DNA of 64,000 nucleotides from Patescibacteria group bacterium (GCA_038062955.1 JBBTWE010000001.1:554271-618270); one strand, 5' to 3'. Positions 1,164-62,630 are shown, counted from the stretch's first letter. Program-made: numbers and translations. The notes: generated from the letters alone by a model not told the origin.

Positions 1164-1225
1164 TATTTATAGTCTTAATTAAGAGAAATCTAGTATAATC
1201 TATCGAGTCAGACAATACAATAAAT

Positions 1226-1663
1226 ATGCCTAATCTAATCCAAAACCGAAAAGCCCATTTTGACTATGAATTCCTTGAGAAAATCGAGAGCGGTATTGAG
1301 CTACATGGTTTTGAGGTGAAAGCGTTAAGAGAAAGCAAAGGGCGCTTGGATGGCGCATATGTAGTAACTCGTGGTGGCGAATCTTTTATTGTAAATTTTC
1401 ATATTTCTCCGTACCAACCAGGAAATACTCCAAAAGGCTACGATCCAGACCGAGTAAAAAAACTACTTTTAACTAAAAAAGAAATAGCCCATATTGCCGG
1501 CTTCGAAAAGCGTAAAGGCTTGACAATTGTGCCTATTTCGGTATATACTAAGAAGAGTAAGATCAAGATTGAACTCGCAATCGCAAAGGGAAAGAAAAAA
1601 TTTGATAAGCGAGAAACGCTTAAAAAGAGAGACGCGGAAAGAGACATGAGGAGGGATATGTAA
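1226..1663 (+). CDS. smpB: SsrA-binding protein SmpB
   Basis: 145 aa. N-terminus (NRKAHFDYEFLEKIESGIELHGFEVKALR) is typical of SmpB. Immediately upstream of tmRNA. Confidence 0.9.
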   Translation: MPNLIQNRKAHFDYEFLEKIESGIELHGFEVKALRESKGRLDGAYVVTRGGESFIVNFHISPYQPGNTPKGYDPDRVKKLLLTKKEIAHIAGFEKRKGLTIVPISVYTKKSKIKIELAIAKGKKKFDKRETLKKRDAERDMRRDM

Positions 1664-1730
1664 GATCTTTGAAATACTAGAATTCGGTCATTCGCGCAAA
1701 ATTTGTCGCCAAAACAAAGGTAAATTTTGC

Positions 1731-2127
1731 GGGGATGATCGGCCTAGACAGAAGAATAATTGGCTGCATGCAAAGCAGAGCTCCGAGAACTCTTAAAAAG
1801 CTCGGAAACACTAAGTGCAAACAACTTAGTTGCAAAAGCTAAATCTATCGTCTCTCCATATTTTGGAAACGAAAAATTGGCTTTCGTTTACGCTTAAAGC
1901 CTAAACGACGTCTCTTCTTTTGACTTCCGATAAGAAGCGAGAGGTGTCATAAAAATCGGGATAGAAAGTTATCTGCCTCAATAACTTTCGAAGTTTAGAG
2001 GCTAAGACATCGAGATGTTTTGTCTGTTTTTAAGTCTCTTTGTTTAAAATACAAAAACAAACTATGCCTTGTAGATTTGCATCCACTTACCTTTTGCACG
2101 GCGGTTCGATTCCGCCCATCTCCACAA
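1731..2127 (+). ncRNA. ssrA: tmRNA (SsrA)
   Basis: Starts GGGGATG... and ends with a tRNA-like T-arm/acceptor (GGCGGTTCGATTCCGCCCATCTCCACA). Internal tag-like ORF ends ...LAFVYA-TAA. Adjacent to smpB. Confidence 0.8.
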
Positions 2128-2138
2128 CAATGAACAAA

Positions 2139-2166
2139 ATGCTCAGAGTAACCCTCTGAGCATTTT
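2139..2166 (+). terminator. Rho-independent terminator after ssrA
   Basis: Hairpin GCTCAGAG-taaccc-TCTGAGC followed by ATTTTGT. Confidence 0.6.
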
Positions 2167-2226
2167 GTATATGGATTTGAGCGGGTTCTAATATTTCTAG
2201 ATTTCGGCAGAGATGACGAGGCTAAC

Positions 2227-2799
2227 TTAGAAATTAAATACCTTCCATTCACAGTCTTTAAGTAGAACTAATTCGAGATTAGTGGCCGTATTCTGCAAAA
2301 CAGTAACTGCTCCTGGGGCAGGCGGCAGTTCTAAGCTTTCGTAATGACAAACTACACGCAAAGGGGCAAGCCCGAGACCCTCGCGCATTACGTCCTCAGA
2401 GTGAGATGCGCCATATTTTGCGATTGCATATGCTCCGGCAGAAGAACCAGCGACTGTCTTATCTTGGATTAAAGGTCGAAGGGATGGGAATGTTCGCAAG
2501 ACGTCTAACAATTTGTTCGTGCTGCCTCCGTGCATATACACGGCATTAGATTTCTTAATTTCCTCCAAGAAACCGTCCTTGGTTGCGAGAATAAATTTAA
2601 TATCCTTGCCGTCTGCTTCAGATAGCATTCTTTCAGCAAGCTCTTTAAAAGTAGTAGAAGGGTCATTATCGCGCGAAGCAAAGAAAACCATAAGCACTGT
2701 TCCACTATTAGGAACGTCTGTCAAAAACTCTTTGAAGAAAAAGCGGTTTAATTCGTTGTCCTTGCGAGTAAATCCTCCGTGGAGAATAAATTTAGTCAT
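2227..2799 (-). CDS. Peptidase S51 family (dipeptidase E / cyanophycinase-like type-1 glutamine amidotransferase fold)
   Basis: 190 aa. Architecture of S51 peptidases (ILATKDGF..., YMHGGSTNKLL, GSSAGA catalytic Ser motif). Confidence 0.65.
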   Translation of the reverse strand: MTKFILHGGFTRKDNELNRFFFKEFLTDVPNSGTVLMVFFASRDNDPSTTFKELAERMLSEADGKDIKFILATKDGFLEEIKKSNAVYMHGGSTNKLLDVLRTFPSLRPLIQDKTVAGSSAGAYAIAKYGASHSEDVMREGLGLAPLRVVCHYESLELPPAPGAVTVLQNTATNLELVLLKDCEWKVFNF

Positions 2800-2842
2800 A
2801 AGAATATTATACCTTGTCTGTGACGGTTTTTTTATAATTAAA

Positions 2843-2871
2843 AACAGCTACTTCGAAAAGTAGCTGTTTTA
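2843..2871. terminator. Bidirectional hairpin terminator
   Basis: Perfect palindrome AACAGCTACTT-cgaa-AAGTAGCTGTT flanked by T/A runs. Confidence 0.6.
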
Positions 2872-2874
2872 GGA

Positions 2875-3135
2875 TCAGATGCCGGGAACACGAGGAACCT
2901 GTATGAGAGATGCGGGGTTTGGAAAATCCCGCACAGTTTGCTCGAACGTCGTGAAGGTAGACGTGAGCAAGCTCTCGAAGGCGCCGAACGGTTCCGACAT
3001 AAGAAACTTGAGAATGAGGATAGTCAGCAAGAGACCTATCGCACCTCGGATGCCAAATGTACGCATGAAAATGGTTCGAGGGGGAACCCTTATTGAGCCG
3101 ACTAAGCTCATTCTCACCCCCGACACTACTGACAT
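2875..3135 (-). CDS. Hypothetical small protein (hydrophobic core) in GC-rich island
   Basis: 86-aa ORF that ends just before the terminator at 2843-2871. Three overlapping ORFs occur here and this one best fits the terminator placement. Local GC is much higher than surroundings. Confidence 0.3.
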   Translation of the reverse strand: MSVVSGVRMSLVGSIRVPPRTIFMRTFGIRGAIGLLLTILILKFLMSEPFGAFESLLTSTFTTFEQTVRDFPNPASLIQVPRVPGI

Positions 3136-3302
3136 GCCATCTCTGGAACATGCCCCTAATGCCGGGGGTATTTCTTTTTTTGAAGAGCAATCTGTTTAAA
3201 AGCTAGCAAAAAATTCTCTTGTTGTCAAAGATAAAAAATTTTGACTTAAACACAGAAATAAGATATCTATATATCCGGACGATCTTACAAAAAAGGAGTC
3301 GC

Positions 3303-3692
3303 ATGATCAGACCCCGATGTCGCCACAGAAGGAGACAGCACATCGCTCAAGCTTTGGTGAAGCACCATGCTTCCCACACCCGCGGACACTGGTGGTGGAA
3401 ACAAACACACCAGAGCATCATGGTTAGATTCAGAGCGCGTTCATTGGTAAACGCAAGAGGTCAGACTTGGGGAAACATCCGCATGCCACGGGACTTAGTG
3501 GAGATCGGCTTCGGAAAGAAAGACGTGCGAGACCAATTCCCCATTGGCTCAGAAATCTATGTGGCCTTTTCGATTGTAGGAACGCGTAGTTCCCCCCAAT
3601 TTATCTGGGAGGGAGTGAAAAAGATCAAACCAGTTTCTTTTAGTAAGGAGAACTCCCAGCTCCAAGAAGCCCACAACGACAAACCGCGATAG
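3303..3692 (+). CDS. Hypothetical Arg/His-rich protein (GC-rich island)
   Basis: AAAGGAG Shine-Dalgarno 5 nt upstream of ATG at 3303. The upstream ATG at 3219 in the ORF track lacks an RBS. No recognisable domain. Confidence 0.5.
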   Translation: MIRPRCRHRRRQHIAQALVKHHASHTRGHWWWKQTHQSIMVRFRARSLVNARGQTWGNIRMPRDLVEIGFGKKDVRDQFPIGSEIYVAFSIVGTRSSPQFIWEGVKKIKPVSFSKENSQLQEAHNDKPR

Positions 3693-3718
3693 ATAATTGA
3701 ATCATCGCGGTTTTTTTT
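3684..3718 (+). terminator. Rho-independent terminator
   Basis: CCGCGAT-13nt-ATCGCGG followed by T8, overlapping the stop codon. Confidence 0.7.
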
Positions 3719-3810
3719 AATTTCCAAACGAATATTTTGACAGAAAATTTAATTTATGTTTATATAAACCAGGATTTTTTACAAATCGTTCTTCAACAAC
3801 TGGAGGTCTC

Positions 3811-4884
3811 ATGAAAGCTCTTTGGCAAGGTATTCTGGTCGTTGTGGCCATCGCGCTCGGTTTGTCTCTCTATTTCATCTATAACAAGACGGGGGCAAGG
3901 GGAAACTTTGTTCCTGCTGAGATTTCGGAAGAGGCTGTTGCTAGATCAGTCCTAAGCTACGCTATTGACCCGATGTTCTCCTCAAGTAATTTGCTTAGCG
4001 ACCTGAATGGTACAAAAGCAAATCTTGTGATGCACGTGTTGGACGAAGACAAGCTTTACTTCTCTCTTCCAAATACCGAAGATTGGGCACTTGCTAGAGA
4101 TTGTTTGACGAAACAACCGGAGAAGATCGAGTTCAGCAGATCAACCGAGGCACCATACAAACTCGGAAGTCTCATCCTGAAGAAAAGAGACGTCTATTTT
4201 TTCCGGATCGACGCGGATGATTTCAAGATTGAGCCGAACGCCCGTCTTCATATCCCATTCAGACAAGCAGTCTACGATCCAACAGCACGCGAACTTGCGA
4301 AGTTCATCACGAATGAAGTGATTATGTGTGGTAGAGAGTATTTTGCCGCAGAAAAGGTGGGTAAGCGGACTGTTTACGCGGCAAACTTCGGCGCCAGAGT
4401 TACCGTTCCGCGCGAATCATCTCTAACCAGACTTGCGAAAGCAATCGTAGGTGAAGAGAAAGATCAAAGTCGCGCTGTTCAGAAGCTTCTCGATTTTGTG
4501 ACGAATGAGATCGAGTATGACAAGGATGAACGCGAATGGGCGGGCAACAGTCAAGTGGTGAAGCGCGCGAATGAAGTCTTGATGACAAAAAGAGCGACTT
4601 GCGCCAGTAAGGCGGCGCTCTATGCGAGTCTGCTCGAACAAATCGATGGGGACTACATCTTCGCGTACTATCCGAAGCACTTGACCGTGTTTGTTTACGG
4701 ACAATATTCGGATTCAAACGGCCACTCGATAGTATACGAAGGGAAACGCTATCATCTGGCTGAAACGACCAATCCCGGTTTCGTAATAGGCTACACCAAA
4801 ATGGAGCCTGAGTTTTCTCCAGAAAACGACTGGACACATCTCCAGAGACCAAAAGACAGGGACGTCCCGAAAGCAAAGAAGTGA
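3811..4884 (+). CDS. Membrane-anchored protein, possible transglutaminase-like cysteine protease fold
   Basis: 357 aa. N-terminal TM/signal (ILVVVAIALGLSLYFIY). C-terminal region with Cys...His spacing (KRATCASKAALYASLLEQ ... YYPKHLTVFV) reminiscent of transglutaminase-like cores. Fold assignment is tentative. Confidence 0.45.
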   Translation: MKALWQGILVVVAIALGLSLYFIYNKTGARGNFVPAEISEEAVARSVLSYAIDPMFSSSNLLSDLNGTKANLVMHVLDEDKLYFSLPNTEDWALARDCLTKQPEKIEFSRSTEAPYKLGSLILKKRDVYFFRIDADDFKIEPNARLHIPFRQAVYDPTARELAKFITNEVIMCGREYFAAEKVGKRTVYAANFGARVTVPRESSLTRLAKAIVGEEKDQSRAVQKLLDFVTNEIEYDKDEREWAGNSQVVKRANEVLMTKRATCASKAALYASLLEQIDGDYIFAYYPKHLTVFVYGQYSDSNGHSIVYEGKRYHLAETTNPGFVIGYTKMEPEFSPENDWTHLQRPKDRDVPKAKK

Positions 4885-4912
4885 GTTTCGTAATCCTCAC
4901 TTCCCCCTCAAA

Positions 4913-4948
4913 GTCACACACCCACACTGTATCGTGGGTGTTTTTTTA
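4913..4948 (+). terminator. Rho-independent terminator
   Basis: CACACACCCACAC-tgtatc-GTGGGTG followed by T7. Confidence 0.7.
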
Positions 4949-4967
4949 TTACCAAAAAAATCTTGCG

Positions 4968-5402
4968 ATGGTACTCTCTTTATGTTTACATAAACGTAGA
5001 TCCAACCCATTTCGGTTTGGACAGTTCTTGGGGAGACAAAACGTGGACGCCACATTCGAACAAATGCTCATAGAAGCGGAACGTATCAGGGCATCGAGAA
5101 AAACACGTGATTTTATCCTTAGACCCTACCAAAGGCATTTTCATTCAATGAGTGAATATGTCCACAAGCAAGGGTTTATCCCGCGCAGAATAGAAGATTG
5201 GTCAGCTAATGATGAGTACCTCGCATTGTGTACAGAACTGGCCATCTATTTTCTAGAGGAAGACCTTGCCGAGGAAATTGGTTCAGTGCTAGACCTATCC
5301 ACCGAGGAAAAGGTTTCGCTTATCGAACGCGTAAGAAGCAAACTTGAACAAGGGATGAGATTTCATGTATGCGTGGTCCGCGGAGATTCAGACACCGAAT
5401 GA
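4968..5402 (+). CDS. Hypothetical protein (GC-rich island); start uncertain
   Basis: ORF track start 4881 overlaps the upstream terminator. First ATG after the terminator is 4968; alternative start about 5063. No recognisable domain. Confidence 0.4.
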   Translation: MVLSLCLHKRRSNPFRFGQFLGRQNVDATFEQMLIEAERIRASRKTRDFILRPYQRHFHSMSEYVHKQGFIPRRIEDWSANDEYLALCTELAIYFLEEDLAEEIGSVLDLSTEEKVSLIERVRSKLEQGMRFHVCVVRGDSDTE

Positions 5403-5597
5403 AATCCTGAAGTCTCCCCTACCCCATAACGCTCCAAGAACATTCGTCAAACGAATCGTTCTGGGGTGTTTTTTATTCCGGCTAGCGAGCGCTATCGCGA
5501 GAATTTATTCTCATGATCCGCGATCAAAGACGGGGTCGACGGGTTTGGTGTCGACACCTGTAGACGGTCAAAGGGTTTTTACCCTTTATTATCAAAT

Positions 5598-6377
5598 TTA
5601 CTCCCCTAAGAAAAACATAAGTAGAACTCCAACAATAATCGAAATAAATTGGATCAAAGATTTTTTAGCACTATGGGTTTTGTGAAGTTCGGGAACCAAA
5701 TCAGAGCCAGCGATGTAGATAAATGCTCCGGCGGCAAAAGCGGCGATAAAAGGATTTACTCCACTAATAAAGTTAGAAGCCAAAATTGCAACCCCCGCAC
5801 CCAAAACGGCAAATAAAGCACTGGCAAAATTAAACCAAAGAGCTTTGGCTTTGCTCATACCTGAATGAAGCAAAAGGGCGAAATCCGCGACTTCTTGAGG
5901 AATTTCGTGGAGAGCGATCGCGATTGTTGTCGCAATCCCAACTTCAACACTTATACCGAAACTGGCCGCGATAACAACACCATCAACAAAGTTATGAATC
6001 GAGTCAGAGATTAAAATTAGAAAACCGAGTGGTTTTATTTTCTTGCTTGGCAAATCAACCATCTCGAGTGCATGACCTTCTTCCACTTCTTCTCCCCCTG
6101 CATGGTGGTGATGCCAATGAAGAAACTTTTCCAAAACAAAAAAGATTAAAATCCCCCCGATAACAAAAAGAGAAATTATTTCTGCATTTTCTACAGCTTC
6201 GAATGATTCAGGAATGAGATGTAAAAAAGCATTACCAAAAAACGCTCCAGCCGCAAGCCCCACAAAAATAAAAAGTGCTTTCTGTAAAAACTCTGCCTTA
6301 AAAGACAGGGCAAAAATGCCGATTAGGGAAATAAGGCTGATTCCAAAGACACTTAGTAAGATGTATAAAGAAAGCAT
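5598..6377 (-). CDS. zupT: ZIP-family zinc transporter ZupT
   Basis: 259 aa, 8 TM segments, His-rich loop (HWHHHHAGGEE), HNFVDGVVIA and HEIPQEVADFALL motifs. Confidence 0.85.
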   Translation of the reverse strand: MLSLYILLSVFGISLISLIGIFALSFKAEFLQKALFIFVGLAAGAFFGNAFLHLIPESFEAVENAEIISLFVIGGILIFFVLEKFLHWHHHHAGGEEVEEGHALEMVDLPSKKIKPLGFLILISDSIHNFVDGVVIAASFGISVEVGIATTIAIALHEIPQEVADFALLLHSGMSKAKALWFNFASALFAVLGAGVAILASNFISGVNPFIAAFAAGAFIYIAGSDLVPELHKTHSAKKSLIQFISIIVGVLLMFFLGE

Positions 6378-6455
6378 GGATGATAATAATTAATTTCAAT
6401 AATATTGGACAAATCCAATGTTAACATATACAAGAAATATGCTTAAATTAAAGAA

Positions 6456-7562
6456 ATGAAAAAAGTATCAAAAATATCATTACTTCTAATCAGCCTTGTC
6501 GCTCTAATATCGACCTTTTCTGGAGTTGAGACGGTTTTGGCCCAAGAACTTCAGCAAGACTTGCAGGGAGTTTGGCGAGCCGAAGTCTTGAAAATTATTA
6601 AAGAGGAAAAGAAGTTAATTGCGGGAACAGAGACAGAAGTAATCATACAAACTCTCGAAGCTAAAATCCTAGAGGGAGATAAAAGCGGCCAAACAGTTAC
6701 ATTGGTAAACGATTACCTACCACTTCAAGTTGGTGATTCTTTTTTCATGAATTATCTGATCACAATTGATGGCAATGAAATCTATTCAGTAAGAGACATA
6801 GACAGAAGGTCCGCACTCATATTTTTTACTTTGCTTTTTGTGGCAGTAATTATTTATTTTGGTAGGTGGCAAGGACTGCGTTCTATAATGAGCCTCTTTG
6901 GAACTTTTTTAGTAATAATTTATTTTTTACTCCCCCTCCTTCTTAAAGGATATCCTCCGGTTTTGACCAGCAGTTTAATTGCCGCGGCTATACTCTTTCT
7001 AGCAATCTTTCTAACCCACGGTTTTAATCGTGAATCAGGAGTAGCTTTTTCTGGCACAGTTATTGCGGTGATTTTAACCGGAATACTGGCTTCGGTAGCT
7101 GTGAGAATGACCAGGCTTACAGGTTTCGGCAATGAAGAGGCCGTCTATTTAAATTTTGCTACTCTCGGCAATTTAAATTTTTCTGGTCTCCTCTTGGGAG
7201 GAATTATCGTGGGAGTTTTAGGAGTCTTAGACGATATTGCTATTACCCAAGTTGCAGTTGTGCGCGAACTTAAAGAGAGTGTACACAACCTTTCAAAAAA
7301 AGAAATTTATCACAAAGCTATGAGAGTCGGACGAGAACATGCAGGAGCTTTAGTTAACACTTTGGCTTTAGCTTACGCCGGAGCAACTCTTCCATTACTT
7401 TTACTTTTTTCGGTATCCCAAATTGAATTTGGAATGATTTTAAATCAAGAAGCGGTCGCGACTGAAATTATAAGAACTATCATCGGAAGCATTGGACTTA
7501 TTCTCACAATTCCAATCACAACTACCTTGGCTGTTTATTTTCTAGGCCCGAGACACGATTAG
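6456..7562 (+). CDS. YibE/F family integral membrane protein
   Basis: 368 aa. Signal/anchor, an extracellular N-domain and a polytopic C-terminal half with YibE/F-like motifs (GVLDDIAITQV). Confidence 0.6.
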   Translation: MKKVSKISLLLISLVALISTFSGVETVLAQELQQDLQGVWRAEVLKIIKEEKKLIAGTETEVIIQTLEAKILEGDKSGQTVTLVNDYLPLQVGDSFFMNYLITIDGNEIYSVRDIDRRSALIFFTLLFVAVIIYFGRWQGLRSIMSLFGTFLVIIYFLLPLLLKGYPPVLTSSLIAAAILFLAIFLTHGFNRESGVAFSGTVIAVILTGILASVAVRMTRLTGFGNEEAVYLNFATLGNLNFSGLLLGGIIVGVLGVLDDIAITQVAVVRELKESVHNLSKKEIYHKAMRVGREHAGALVNTLALAYAGATLPLLLLFSVSQIEFGMILNQEAVATEIIRTIIGSIGLILTIPITTTLAVYFLGPRHD

Positions 7563-7753: not shown

Positions 7754-7833
7754 TCCCCGAGATAGCGCACCCGTCTGCATCCCGCAGACAACCCGGATCA
7801 GTTCGCTGATCCATGTTCCAGGAGTTGGATCTC

Positions 7834-8430
7834 ATGCTCAACAAACTTCTCTCGGTCATGGTCTTCATGGCGTGGCTCGTTTGCCCCGCCGTGATCGCCC
7901 AGGCGCCGCATCTCCACGCGTTCGTGGATCCGGTGAACCAGTCGGTGAACACGATCAACGTCAGTTGGTTCGTCGAAACAGGAGAGCTCCTGATGTCGAC
8001 AGCCATCAGCCGTGCTCCAATGATGGAGTTCAACTGGAATGAAGAAGACGGCACCCACAACACGCTCACGACCGAAGTCAGCAACACCAAGGAATGGGTC
8101 TTCGAGATCACATCGATCACCGGCCTCGGAGCGTTCGAGAACGGCAAGATCGTCCCGCAAGGACAAGGCCAGGGTCCGGCTCAGAGTTCCTACACAACCT
8201 CATGGGTCGATTCGAATGGTTCAACATGGACAGTGCTCACGCTACGCACCTCAACCACTGCTGCAGGAAGGAAAGAAGAACTCCGAAACCACCTCGAACA
8301 AGTAAGGGAGATGCAATCAGCATTCCCCCCAAGACCCGTGACGCCACCGCCCGAACCGGAGCCGGAGGAAGCGTTCCTCTCCCCGCCACCCAGGTGGCAC
8401 CGATCCGAGGTACGACTCGCGCTTGTCTAG
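7834..8430 (+). CDS. Secreted Pro-rich hypothetical protein (about 60% GC)
   Basis: AGGAG RBS, then ATG at 7834. Signal peptide MLNKLLSVMVFMAWLVCPAVIAQA with AxA site. C-terminus PPRPVTPPPEPEPEE. GC about 60% against a 35% background. ORFs on other frames and the opposite strand overlap it. Confidence 0.5.
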   Translation: MLNKLLSVMVFMAWLVCPAVIAQAPHLHAFVDPVNQSVNTINVSWFVETGELLMSTAISRAPMMEFNWNEEDGTHNTLTTEVSNTKEWVFEITSITGLGAFENGKIVPQGQGQGPAQSSYTTSWVDSNGSTWTVLTLRTSTTAAGRKEELRNHLEQVREMQSAFPPRPVTPPPEPEPEEAFLSPPPRWHRSEVRLALV

Positions 8431-38048: not shown

Positions 38049-39563
38049 TTGCCTTTTAACTTTACTTTTATGAAACGTCCCTCTAATTGGGTCCTAGGCT
38101 TCATCTCCGCATTTATTATCGGAGTATTCATTCAATCTTTCCTAAATTTCACAGGTCTTTATCTTTTTTTTCTCGAACTAGCCTTAATATTTGGGGGAAT
38201 TTCACTTCTCCATTTCTTTCAAAAAAATAGAATCTCTCTCACTTTTGGTTTTTTAACACTAATACTTATCGCTTCCTCTTTAGGGATTCTTAGAACAGAA
38301 AAAGTTCTATTACCAAAAGATAATCTAGAAAAATCTCGTGATACTGGAGAAATTATAACCTTTATCGGAACTATCGTAGAAGAACCTGACATAAGAGACA
38401 CCAACATAAAATACACCGTTTTAGTTGAAGAAATTGATGAGAGAATCTTAATTACTGCTAAAATTTTTCCAGAGTTAGAGTACAAAGATAGAATAAAGTT
38501 GTCTGGAAAATTAGAAACACCGAAAGAATTCCCAGAATTTAACTATCGAGAATTCTTAATTAAAGACAAAATACACACCGTTTTATACGATCCAGAAATT
38601 GAGTTAATCGAAAAAAAGAATTTTTCTTTTTATCAAAAAATTCTAGACATTAAAAATATTTTAAGACGCTCCACAGAAAAAATTCTGCCTTATCCATACA
38701 GTGAAATTTTAAAAGCGATGATGCTCGGCGATACCAGTTCTCTTCCTCAAGATGTAAAAGATATTTATAAAAATGTTGGTTTAAGCCATATTCTGGCAAT
38801 TTCCGGAAGTCACATCACTATAATTGCCGGAATTTTATTTTCTCTCTTAAACCTTACTAGATTTAGAAAAAAATCTTTTTACATAATTTTGAGCGTGCTC
38901 ATTTTCTATATCGTACTAATCGGGTATCCTGCTTCCGCGGTAAGAGCTGGTATTATGGCCGGAATTTTACTCTTGGGTGAAAAATTAAAACGGCCTTACT
39001 TTATAGAAAGAGGTCTTTTGGTCGCAGCCTTTTTAATGCTTATAATAAATCCTTTGTTCTTACGATACGACATTGGATTTCAGTTATCTTTTCTCGCAGT
39101 TCTAGGCATATCGCAAACCCAAAATATTTTTAAAGATTTTTTCAATAAATTTTTCCGAGGAAAATTACTGTGGTTTCAGGATGTTTTGGCGATCACTTTG
39201 GCTGCTCAAATCTACACTTTACCACTTGTTATATATAACTTTGGTTTCTTTTCTTTATTCTCTCCTCTGGTCAACATTCTAGTTGTTCCAACCTTGCCGA
39301 TGCTCACAATTTTGAGTTTTATCGCGATCTTTGCCGGCGTAATCTGGAGTTTCTTGGGAATTCTCCTTGCTCTGCCTGTTTATCTAATTCTGGTTTACAT
39401 ACAAAAAATAAGTATCTTTTTCGGAAGCATTCATTTAAATTCAATAACAATAGAATCTTTGAGCTTCTTTTGGGTGATTATTCTTTACCTCGTTATTGGA
39501 CTAACAGTCTGGCGTCTCAAAAAGCGGAATAAACGTGCATTACAAAACTCGTCTAATCAATAG
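38049..39563 (+). CDS. comEC: ComEC/Rec2 competence channel domain protein (DUF4131 plus competence domain, no MBL domain)
   Basis: 504 aa polytopic. Competence-domain motifs (LGDTSSLP..., LSHILAISGSHITI). Confidence 0.75.
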   Translation: MPFNFTFMKRPSNWVLGFISAFIIGVFIQSFLNFTGLYLFFLELALIFGGISLLHFFQKNRISLTFGFLTLILIASSLGILRTEKVLLPKDNLEKSRDTGEIITFIGTIVEEPDIRDTNIKYTVLVEEIDERILITAKIFPELEYKDRIKLSGKLETPKEFPEFNYREFLIKDKIHTVLYDPEIELIEKKNFSFYQKILDIKNILRRSTEKILPYPYSEILKAMMLGDTSSLPQDVKDIYKNVGLSHILAISGSHITIIAGILFSLLNLTRFRKKSFYIILSVLIFYIVLIGYPASAVRAGIMAGILLLGEKLKRPYFIERGLLVAAFLMLIINPLFLRYDIGFQLSFLAVLGISQTQNIFKDFFNKFFRGKLLWFQDVLAITLAAQIYTLPLVIYNFGFFSLFSPLVNILVVPTLPMLTILSFIAIFAGVIWSFLGILLALPVYLILVYIQKISIFFGSIHLNSITIESLSFFWVIILYLVIGLTVWRLKKRNKRALQNSSNQ

Positions 39564-39589
39564 TTTTTGAGAGACATTGCGGAGGCGAG

Positions 39590-40460: not shown

Positions 40461-40474
40461 AAATTTCTTTGAAT

Positions 40475-40595
40475 TACAAAACTCGTCGAAATCATAGTTT
40501 TTGAGAGACATTGCGCAGGCTGGCGAGCCGAGCATAGCAAAAATCTAGCAAGATTTTATGCGCGTCTATCAAAAACTTATGATGAGAAAGGGTTT
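40475..40595. repeat. Dispersed repeat family D
   Basis: Near-identical to 62478-62630 except that the latter carries a 32-bp insert also present at 5540-5570. Partial copy at 39555-39583. Confidence 0.7.
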
Positions 40596-42855: not shown

Positions 42856-43512
42856 TTAGTAGCAGAACCAGATTGCCGTCGTGACGAGCCAGCTCAATTC
42901 ATTGCCTGACTCGCCGATTAGCATTCCTTGGTTCTTCTTGTTCCAACCATCCTGTCGTGCCGCGAGCCAAATCTCAACTAGCCTCGTGCAAACAGTGATG
43001 TGACCTATCGTGAGAGTCGCACCTGCCAAACCGTCTTTTCGACCTGCAACGATGATGCAGTACCCGATAAACAGTTGAGGCACACTCTTGAGTAGCAACG
43101 CGATAATGCCTCTGGTGATCGGTTCAGAAACTGTCGCAACGAGCGACCCTTTCCGTCGTGTTACCAGTAGCACCGCGAGACTAACGAGAATCAAAATGGT
43201 GAGTATCGTGTCTTGTCTCGACCACGTGCCCTTGATGGCGATGATGGCGAACAAAGTAAGCCAGAGCAGCAACCAGTTTGCATACACGAGCACCACCTGA
43301 CCAGCCTTTCGACTCTTCGACTGTTCATAAGCTCCGAGAGCCAAGAACAAATTGATGAGAACGAATGCCGAGCAGAACATGGTCCATGTAATGGTCATGC
43401 CCGCAGTGCTCTCAAGAGAACGGATGACTTGCGGCACAGTGAAGGCCCAAGCCATTGATAGCTGGAACCAGAAAAGCAGGTCGCCAGCTAGCCGCTTGTT
43501 TTCGGCAGACAT
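42856..43512 (-). CDS. GC-rich polytopic membrane protein, possible PQ-loop repeat family
   Basis: 218 aa, about 7 TM. Two PQ motifs (VPQVIR, VPQLFI) about 110 aa apart. Local GC about 52%. Confidence 0.4.
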   Translation of the reverse strand: MSAENKRLAGDLLFWFQLSMAWAFTVPQVIRSLESTAGMTITWTMFCSAFVLINLFLALGAYEQSKSRKAGQVVLVYANWLLLWLTLFAIIAIKGTWSRQDTILTILILVSLAVLLVTRRKGSLVATVSEPITRGIIALLLKSVPQLFIGYCIIVAGRKDGLAGATLTIGHITVCTRLVEIWLAARQDGWNKKNQGMLIGESGNELSWLVTTAIWFCY

Positions 43513-62477: not shown

Positions 62478-62630
62478 CATTGAAATCATAGTTTTTGAGA
62501 GACATTGCGCAGGTCGACAGGTTAGGTGTCGACACCTGTAGACGGGCTGGCGAGCCGAGCATAGCAAAAATCTAGCAAGATTTTATGCACGTCTATCAAA
62601 AACTTATGATGAGTAAGAGTTTCGAGATAA
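62478..62630. repeat. Family D repeat with 32-bp insert
   Basis: See 40475-40595. Insert TCGACAGGTTAGGTGTCGACACCTGTAGACGG also at 5540-5570. Confidence 0.7.

Follow-up and report, generated by a model that had tools for sequence, protein, structure and literature searches.

The stretch of Patescibacteria group bacterium DNA analyzed here, called the window below, spans 64,000 nucleotides (nt; GCA_038062955.1 JBBTWE010000001.1:554271-618270). Near its start, a series of small genes lies between a block encoding SmpB (1226-1663, + strand) and the transfer-messenger RNA (tmRNA; 1731-2127, +) on one side and a gene for a ZIP zinc transporter, zip (5598-6377, - strand; Pfam), which is convergent with them, on the other. 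A Peptidase_S51 gene (2227-2799, -; Pfam) belongs to the left flank, and a YibE/F gene (6456-7562, +; Pfam) follows beyond zip. An initial annotation had described the genes in between as a guanine-plus-cytosine (GC)-rich module, likely of horizontal origin, with surface or effector functions. The sequence of the region was identical (100%) in four independently assembled contigs from Hainich groundwater samples and one Logan run, which ruled out an assembly artefact or chimera. The same sequence is found within a 703,865-bp contig of the Patescibacteria (Candidate Phyla Radiation) metagenome-assembled genome GCA_964363395.1; the host is thus a groundwater member of this group with a small genome of approximately 0.70 Mb.

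The open reading frames (ORFs) of the initial annotation do exist. We found a first coding unit spanning 2875-3199 and three ORFs on the + strand, at 3303-3692 (129 amino acids [aa]; p129), 3811-4884 (357 aa; a transglutaminase-like enzyme) and 5043-5402 (119 aa; p119). All had been taken to run the same way, but the first is more probably coded on the minus strand, as a 63-aa ORF at 2875-3066 (small63). The three palindromic terminators reported earlier are stable folds with T-runs downstream; that at 2841-2870 has a 13-bp stem and a fold energy of -16 kcal/mol (z-score [z] -6). We identified a further terminator 3′ of the p119 gene, as well as a hairpin followed by a T-run at 3116-3181. The second and third terminators had been described as followed by the next ribosome-binding site (RBS) and start codon; some 90 nt, including a promoter-like site, separate each terminator from the next start. 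The region thus comprises four single-gene units, every one with its own terminator, and each of the four appears to have its own promoter-like site, judging from the sequence.

We compared the content of this region in three genomes of the lineage, namely, the window genome and those represented by contigs L005 and L057. In L005, small63 is followed by a 54-aa ORF, NTP_transf_2 and FMN_red genes and a transglutaminase-like gene, and then by zip. The zip and yibE/F genes of L005 and the window are 79% identical in nucleotide sequence, with approximately 0.9 to 1.2 synonymous substitutions per site (dS). The L005 enzyme shares 66 to 69% of its residues with that of the window and, as in the window, adjoins zip. 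L005 has neither the p119 gene nor its promoter and terminator; the gap between the enzyme gene and zip is only 55 nt long and contains a shared terminator. The place of p129 is taken by the 54-aa ORF, the nucleotidyltransferase and the FMN reductase, and searches of L005 with p129 and p119 using tblastn gave no match. The other relative, L057-L060, was found through the closest remote homologue of p129. Its gene order is serine recombinase, tmRNA, SmpB, small63, a 137-aa p129 homologue, YafQ/RelB, a 160-aa ORF, zip, fur and yibE/F, without a transglutaminase-like gene. Both relatives have kept the flanks, small63 on the left and zip on the right. Because they carry different subsets of the genes in between, the stretch from small63 to zip is best described as a slot with cargo turnover, and its four genes do not form a unit.

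These data point to a region that is probably a hypervariable accessory-gene slot of four independent single-gene units, flanked on one side by the smpB-tmRNA block and on the other by the convergent zip gene. We favor a patchwork of old gene gains over a newly acquired effector module. In such a slot, small63, with its long structured leader, would be the fixed left border and the other genes would be exchangeable cargo.

The initial annotation had assumed instead a single, coherent surface or effector module whose genes arrived and work together. The GC-rich genes are indeed contiguous, one of them encodes a predicted surface-exposed transglutaminase-like enzyme, the enzyme and p119 genes have a near-identical 17-nt -10 region in common, and the region is close to the tmRNA gene, a classical integration site. 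Against this, every gene has its own terminator and the first is on the opposite strand, no neighbor of the enzyme family is conserved across phyla, and the place of the enzyme beside zip is older than a divergence of dS ~1. Checking for presence or absence in relatives, we found that the genes do not travel together: the enzyme occurs in L005, where p129 and p119 are missing, and the p129 homologue occurs in L057, where the enzyme is missing. Neither an integrase nor an att repeat was found. The gene content of L005 and L057 largely refutes a common arrival, which we regard as very unlikely. Nothing specific speaks for an effector role.

The 357-aa protein belongs to the transglutaminase-like superfamily, as indicated by a Pfam profile and a predicted papain-like fold. 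It matches PF01841 (Transglut_core) over residues 207 to 277 with 30.7 bits, compared with a gathering cut-off of 23, and its only other Pfam match is PF04473. Among 5.8 billion proteins we found 77 full-length homologues of approximately 350 aa, most of which carry PF01841. In an alignment of 41 homologues, Cys264, His290 and Glu318 are conserved at 90% or more. AlphaFold2 run with the homologue alignment gave a confident model (mean predicted local distance difference test [pLDDT], 92.8; predicted template modeling score, 0.87) with a membrane helix at residues 2 to 27, an N-terminal domain at approximately 40 to 200 and a catalytic domain at approximately 200 to 345. In the papain-like core of this model, Cys264 sits at the N terminus of a helix, and His290 and Glu318 are at the ends of neighboring strands. 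Foldseek related the model to 3isr with a probability of 1.0. As a sequence search of the PDB with the protein gave no match, its relationship to known structures is at the superfamily level only. The Cys/His core reminiscent of transglutaminase-like cysteine proteases, proposed from the sequence, was thus supported by Pfam, residue conservation, AlphaFold and Foldseek.

The proposed membrane anchoring of the enzyme also agrees with the modeled N-terminal helix and with the presence of lipoproteins among its homologues. Many homologues have a lipobox Cys after the signal helix, which indicates an extracytoplasmic family. In the window protein, this signal is replaced by a plain hydrophobic helix, and its outward orientation is suggested by these homologues. 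Presumably located outside the cytoplasmic membrane, the Cys-His-Glu domain would act by cleavage or transamidation on a protein or peptide of the envelope, either its own or possibly that of a host. The gene is preceded by a putative promoter (TTGACA, 17 nt, TTATAT; 3737-3769, +) that includes the 17-mer TTTATGTTTATATAAAC, and a related -10 region is found upstream of the L005 orthologue. Its intrinsic terminator is at 4918-4948 (+; hairpin at 4918-4941, -13.5 kcal/mol, z -2.8, then 7 T), and a similar terminator is immediately next to zip in L005.

In a genome collection, family members were found in Woesearchaeota, Pacearchaeota and other archaea, in many Ignavibacteria, and in Bacteroidota, Sumerlaeota, Verrucomicrobiota and Kiritimatiellae, with few in Patescibacteria. 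In a neighbor-joining tree, the window enzyme clusters with four metagenomic sequences (L005, L011, L007 and L009), apart from all of these clades. Neighbor clustering at 41 loci revealed no functional partner kept across phyla, arguing that the enzyme gene is a stand-alone gene; neighbors are conserved only within Ignavibacteria, as plain synteny.

We compared the enzyme with the nearest known proteins. LapG and the bacterial transglutaminase-like cysteine proteinases (4fgo) are 11% identical to the window enzyme, which does not belong to the LapG-type family. It differs from LapG by an extra N-terminal domain of approximately 160 residues, a membrane anchor and Glu as the third residue of the triad, and no LapD- or LapA-type partner genes are near it, its neighbors being unrelated. 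The putative cysteine proteases of Cytophaga (3isr) and Parabacteroides (3kd4), which come from structural genomics and are also functionally uncharacterized, are 11 to 15% identical; their template modeling scores normalized to the query are only approximately 0.25, since the catalytic domain alone matches. The periplasmic domain of Pseudomonas aeruginosa TgpA (6g4h) and the pseudomurein endoisopeptidases PeiW and PeiP (8jx4, 8z4f) are distant structural relatives with other domain architectures. CPR-C4 (7pjo), a cysteine protease of the Candidate Phyla Radiation, has approximately 216 residues, a Cys-His-Leu(carbonyl) triad and vasohibin-like features (PMC9108980), whereas the window enzyme has a membrane helix and a Cys-His-Glu pattern and belongs to a different family.

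The second unit, at 3303-3692 (+), codes for a very basic protein (MIRPRCRHRRRQH..., isoelectric point [pI] 11.6) and has an AAAGGAG sequence 6 nt before its ATG. The N-terminal 45 residues of p129 are rich in Arg, His and Trp, with 10 Arg and 7 His among the first 50 residues, and its C-terminal part is predicted to be β-rich. The intrinsic terminator of the gene (3681-3718, +; hairpin at 3681-3713, -16 kcal/mol, z -4.7, then 8 T) contains the stop codon within its stem. A word-indexed search of 5.8 billion proteins for close homologues matched only the query itself, and a HMMER search of 1.84 billion representatives yielded six remote relatives of 126 to 169 aa (E values of 2e-9 to 3e-5, 31 to 44% identity). 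The family has a common N terminus, MIRPRRR..H..A.V..HT.HT.G.W, and a C-terminal block, P..E.EVGF...RD.YPIG.EVEV.FS. As the relatives share both blocks, the start of p129 can be set at 3303 and the family is real, if very rare; the Arg/His-rich protein noted at the outset is therefore the product of a genuine gene. The closest of the remote homologues (P0080; 44% identity, 137 aa) is the one that occupies the same slot in L057. The more distant relatives are on contigs of 44 to 55% GC, among unrelated small genes and without the 63-aa gene. We found no match to p129 in Pfam, PDB, PHROG or PADLOC, including with a profile of the seven family members against PDB and Pfam. Structure prediction, suggested for both proteins, was informative for the 357-aa enzyme but not for p129, whose model, computed without an alignment, was unusable (pLDDT 50).

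The fourth unit encodes an acidic protein (p119; 5043-5402, +; pI 5.0) from a GTG start codon after GGGGAG, in a frame open over 174 codons. It is preceded by a putative promoter (TTGCGA, 17 nt, TTACAT; 4963-4995, +) and followed by a strong intrinsic terminator (5428-5478, +; hairpin at 5428-5470, -22 kcal/mol, z -3.9). The -10 regions of the enzyme and p119 genes are a near-identical 17-mer (TTTATGTTTAYATAAAC) at 3753-3769 and 4979-4995, of which there is no third copy in the window; it could represent a shared operator or a copied promoter.

Could the small ORFs, p119 above all, not be genes, leaving the enzyme gene as the only real one? p119 has no homologue among 5.8 billion proteins, apart from itself, or among the viral contigs of IMG/VR, and profile searches with it gave only chance-level matches. 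The available assemblies also show no polymorphism usable for a test of selection, the four of them being identical except for a run of N. However, 174 open codons in DNA of 45% GC have a probability of approximately 5e-5 per frame by our own estimate, and the RBS, the promoter-like site and the terminator argue that p119 is probably a gene. As for the other small ORFs, the remote homologues of p129 start alike, with MIRPRRR, and the substitutions in small63 are periodic by three bases (p = 2e-5). We therefore consider it unlikely that the enzyme gene is the only real one, and retain four units in the slot.

At the left border of the slot, the segment 2835-3236 is 79 to 87% identical between the window and L005 and L057, and is thus as well conserved as core genes or better. 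Two antisense ORFs with wobble positions in common are open there, and public gene calls use the plus-strand ORF (2879/2903-3199), which overlaps small63 (2875-3066, -). In the alignment of the three genomes, variable sites are distributed by codon position as 8/5/27 (chi-square p = 2e-5), with no indels, whereas the adjacent 125 nt vary as 12/11/12 without three-base periodicity, 72% of their columns being invariant. This indicates a coding core and a non-coding leader. The ratio of nonsynonymous to synonymous substitution rates (dN/dS) is 0.10 to 0.23 in the minus frame and 0.14 to 0.31 in the plus frame, and it is lower in the minus frame for all three genome pairs. The start and stop codons of small63 are kept in the three genomes. 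The minus strand is favored because its product has a constant length of 63 aa, replacements in that frame are mostly conservative, the product contains a hydrophobic helix (N-terminal; GAIGLLLTILILKFLM), its dN/dS is lower, and the hairpin at 2841-2870 is always attached downstream. The first ORF is thus most likely coded on the minus strand, its product being a membrane protein.

The hairpin at 2841-2870 is a perfect 13-bp palindrome, preceded by an A-run and followed by a T-run, and is kept beside the 63-aa gene in the three genomes with one compensatory pair. It is most likely the terminator of small63. It also insulates the next minus-strand gene, which is the S51 peptidase gene in the window and smpB in L057; the gene beyond the hairpin varies across the three genomes (S51, smpB or a 163-aa ORF). 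Upstream of small63, the conserved non-coding leader (3067-3190, -) forms a long hairpin that resembles, when read on the + strand (3116-3181), an intrinsic terminator followed by a T-run. The start codon of small63 lies between the arms of a 20-nt inverted repeat (3009-3028/3097-3116), which shows a few compensatory changes, and the whole minus-strand unit has a fold z of -8. Unlike its neighbors, small63 has no Shine-Dalgarno sequence. Its putative promoter (TTGACA, 17 nt, TAGCTT; 3200-3228, -) was not among the sites listed by a consensus promoter scan; we recognized it from the alignment, in which the -35 hexamer and the spacing are kept in L005 and L057. A single metagenome scan for further relatives of the gene returned only the L005 contig. 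Rfam searches, at gathering thresholds and, for 2700-5700, at E values as high as 10, yielded nothing but chance matches resembling terminators, and the core of 2835-3236, with its three-base periodicity, is coding; a known RNA family was thus rejected for this segment.

These features raise the question of whether 2841-3230 might be a type I toxin-antitoxin-like locus, in which a minus-strand mRNA would encode a hydrophobic toxin with its start codon hidden by the structured leader, and a plus-strand antisense RNA would end at the 3116-3181 hairpin and T-run. small63 is a small hydrophobic ORF under purifying selection with a single helix and no Shine-Dalgarno sequence; its leader of approximately 125 nt is conserved, its start codon lies within a conserved helix with compensatory pairs, and the minus strand is strongly folded. 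Terminator-like hairpins with T-runs are kept on both strands in the three genomes, including that of the presumed antisense RNA, and relatives hold toxin-antitoxin genes in the neighboring slot. However, no plus-strand promoter was found in the consensus scan, and covariation is seen in only 7 of the 125 predicted pairs, with an unfavorable RNAalifold covariation term for three sequences, which are all that the comparison includes. There is also no likeness to any known toxin or RNA family in Pfam, Rfam and PADLOC searches, and the 40-residue tail of the protein exceeds that of most type I toxins. This makes a toxin-antitoxin function quite doubtful. If it were true, the locus would also be the fixed border of a slot in which genes of the basic 129-aa family are exchanged along with that for the enzyme and with classical toxin-antitoxin pairs; we know of no type I-like antisense-controlled locus in this radiation, although we made no literature search. 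The strand and the regulation of the conserved 63-aa gene may be worth following up.

We next consider the base composition of the slot. Its GC content is raised (46% overall, compared with 38% for the rest of the window), but the 50 to 58% first given for the genes was too high: they have 52% (63-aa), 51% (129-aa), 48% (357-aa) and 45% (119-aa), and the best 300-nt window reaches 53%. GC at third codon positions (GC3) is 0.44 to 0.60 in these genes versus approximately 0.31 in core genes, and the tetranucleotide distance of the region has a robust z of 2.3. The genes thus look foreign in a compositional test, although two other parts of the window deviate more strongly than this region, 13 to 16 kb (z up to 5.5) and 7 to 9 kb (z 2.8), and at least three other GC-rich patches are present.

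Three genes make up the strongest outlier, 13061-15917 (48 to 50% GC); their products, a GFO/IDH/MocA oxidoreductase, a DegT/DnrJ/EryC1 aminotransferase and a NUDIX hydrolase, resemble a sugar-modification set. A gene at 7813-8430 (called as 7834-8430; 198 aa) has 58% GC and a GC3 of 0.70; its product, which matches no Pfam family, has a hydrophobic N-terminal stretch, an apparent signal peptide, and a proline-rich tail. Its L005 orthologue has a GC3 of 0.73 and is only 49% identical, while the neighbors are 88% identical. A 218-aa ORF at 42856-43512 (-; GC3 0.62, no Pfam match) is an isolated GC-rich gene.

The enzyme gene has a GC3 of 0.52 in the window and surpasses its neighbors in each case within the clade of the window, in L005 (0.52 versus 0.30 to 0.33), L007 (0.61 versus 0.35) and L011 (0.63 versus 0.33). 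In the distant clades (DPANN archaea, Ignavibacteria and Bacteroidota), the GC content of the gene equals that of the host (mean difference, +0.012). Wherever they were examined in the lineage, the enzyme gene, small63 and the p129 family have a high GC3, with orthologues in L005, L007, L011 and L057, so that whatever raised their GC must be older than the split between these genomes (core dS ~1). At 4-fold degenerate sites of the enzyme gene, polarized with two outgroups, 22 changes were from GC to AT and 10 from AT to GC.

The raised GC of the cargo would most simply stem from acquisition out of GC-richer sources. For the enzyme gene, small63 and the p129 family, acquisition would have preceded the split of the lineage and been followed by slow decay towards the host composition. 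Alternatively, the genes might be native and their GC kept high locally, for instance through repair that favors GC where recombination is frequent or through selection acting on envelope genes that evolve fast, in which case composition would be silent on transfer. The enzyme gene has retained a GC3 of 0.52 in both the window and L005 despite saturated synonymous sites, small63 and the p129 family are GC3-rich in L057 too, and the nearby gene for a secreted 198-aa protein combines high GC3 in both genomes with fast evolution; all these genes evolve faster than core genes. On the other hand, a native origin accounts poorly for the patchy distribution of the enzyme, present in few Patescibacteria and in many DPANN archaea, Ignavibacteria and Bacteroidota, for the excess of GC-to-AT changes, for the GC-richer contigs that harbor the remote p129 homologues, and for the shifts in slot content by gain and loss of whole genes. 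It is conceivable but rather unlikely. Old horizontal acquisition is favored because of the weak signal of GC decay (22 versus 10) together with the patchy distribution; the direction and age of the transfers are what we infer from these data. The composition is thus in keeping with the horizontal origin first proposed. A recent acquisition is not supported, as the enzyme adjoins zip with the same raised GC3 in a relative at a core dS of ~1.

Genomic islands and transferred genes amounting to up to 13% of the genome have been documented in groundwater Patescibacteria (PMC12455944). Like these islands and those beside tmRNA genes, the slot has cargo of atypical composition, content that varies among relatives, and toxin-antitoxin genes in the same position. 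A further likeness to tmRNA-integrated islands is seen in L057 alone, where a serine recombinase gene beyond the tmRNA, away from the slot, overlaps the tmRNA 3′ end. Unlike such islands, the window lacks an integrase, phage genes and an att duplication of the tmRNA 3′ end, and its slot is separated from the tmRNA by the S51 peptidase gene. No integrase or recombinase was detected inside the region among ORFs between 2800 and 5600 (Pfam, PHROG, NCBIfam), and a repeat search over 1600-6500 revealed no att-like direct repeats or tmRNA 3′-end repeat at the far border. A phage origin was rejected, as PHROGs gave nothing significant, the enzyme had no counterpart in a tblastn search of 50,697 phage records, and p129 and p119 were not found in IMG/VR; viral structure matches of the enzyme were generic transglutaminase-like folds only. 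PADLOC gave only a 14-bit chance match, arguing against a defense system.

The tmRNA side of the locus also differs between the genomes. The smpB-tmRNA block is inverted in the window (1224-2127) relative to L057 (1836-2740) and L005 (2-340), and the S51 peptidase gene (2227-2799) is present between tmRNA and small63 only in the window genome. The large serine recombinase gene of L057 (289-1875; Resolvase, Recombinase and Zn_ribbon_recom domains) overlaps the 3′ end of the tmRNA gene (1837-2231) by approximately 39 nt. Elements integrated at tmRNA classically show such an overlap. The tmRNA of the window (1731-2127) encodes an unusually long tag of 26 residues, ANNLVAKAKSIVSPYFGNEKLAFVYA, which is identical in L057.

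Several observations weigh against the account of the slot and its enzyme given above. The comparison of slots is limited to three genomes of the lineage, and in the window no mobility gene, att repeat or tRNA- or tmRNA-derived repeat bounds the region, so that no mechanism of gain is visible. The polarization test is weak (22 versus 10) and biased by GC-rich outgroups, and the persistence of raised GC3 past dS ~1 is equally compatible with a locally different substitution regime. As to the proteins, the usual transglutaminase-like triad is Cys-His-Asp, and the presumed third catalytic residue of the enzyme is Glu318 rather than Asp, beside a Cys264/His290 pair conserved at 90% or more. Its outward topology is deduced from lipoprotein homologues, and the strand of small63 rests on modest differences.

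The far end of the region contains intergenic repeats. The initial annotation had pointed out a motif that recurs inside a repeat family; this 21-mer, GGTGTCGACACCTGTAGACGG, is indeed found exactly at 62525-62545, as an insert, but its first copy, at 5547-5567, lies beyond the end given for the region (5480). No such match is expected by chance. The similarity extends to a 33- to 34-nt element, GGTCGACRGGTTWGGTGTCGACACCTGTAGACGG, at 5534-5567 and 62512-62545. The first of these (5534-5567, +) is a palindrome-containing 33-nt element, GGTCGACGGGTTTGGTGTCGACACCTGTAGACGG (GGTCGAC...GTAGACGG), of modest hairpin potential. At 62.5 kb the element is a clean insertion compared with sister repeat copies at 39536-39586 and 40470-40595, and a diverged inverted copy is present approximately 2 kb upstream of the window (L001 233-266). 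It may be a very small mobile repeat. A viral link was rejected, as the four matches of its 18-mer in viral contigs are all in one unrelated phage gene, about the number expected by chance according to our rough estimate. Another 33-nt unit, (T)TTTTATTCCGGCTAGCGAGCGCTATCGC, at 5467-5499 (+) equals L001 199-231, approximately 2 kb before the start of the window. It is directly 3′ of a terminator T-run at both sites, and the palindromic element is near it at both, in a different order and orientation. Elsewhere in the window, intergenic repeats of 50 to 110 nt that belong to many families were found at 21.5, 31.1, 36.9, 39.5, 40.5, 46.1, 50.4, 51.8, 62.3 and 63.5 kb. At least 60 direct-repeat families are present at a seed of 12, an unusual density for a 0.7-Mb genome.

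The slot does not change in kind what is known of groundwater Patescibacteria, whose compositional islands and exchange of genes have been described before (PMC12455944). The persistence of raised GC3 in the fast-evolving genes of this locus is a point possibly worth following up. Annotation and the choice of targets can benefit from knowing that the enzyme gene lies at a hot spot whose genes are replaced from one close relative to the next. For an enzyme family common to DPANN archaea, Ignavibacteria and Bacteroidota, our analysis also provides a fold predicted with confidence, together with likely catalytic residues and a probable location. As the genomes of Patescibacteria are tiny and the cells are thought to live on the surface of others, any surface enzyme that they produce is a candidate for host interaction or envelope remodeling.

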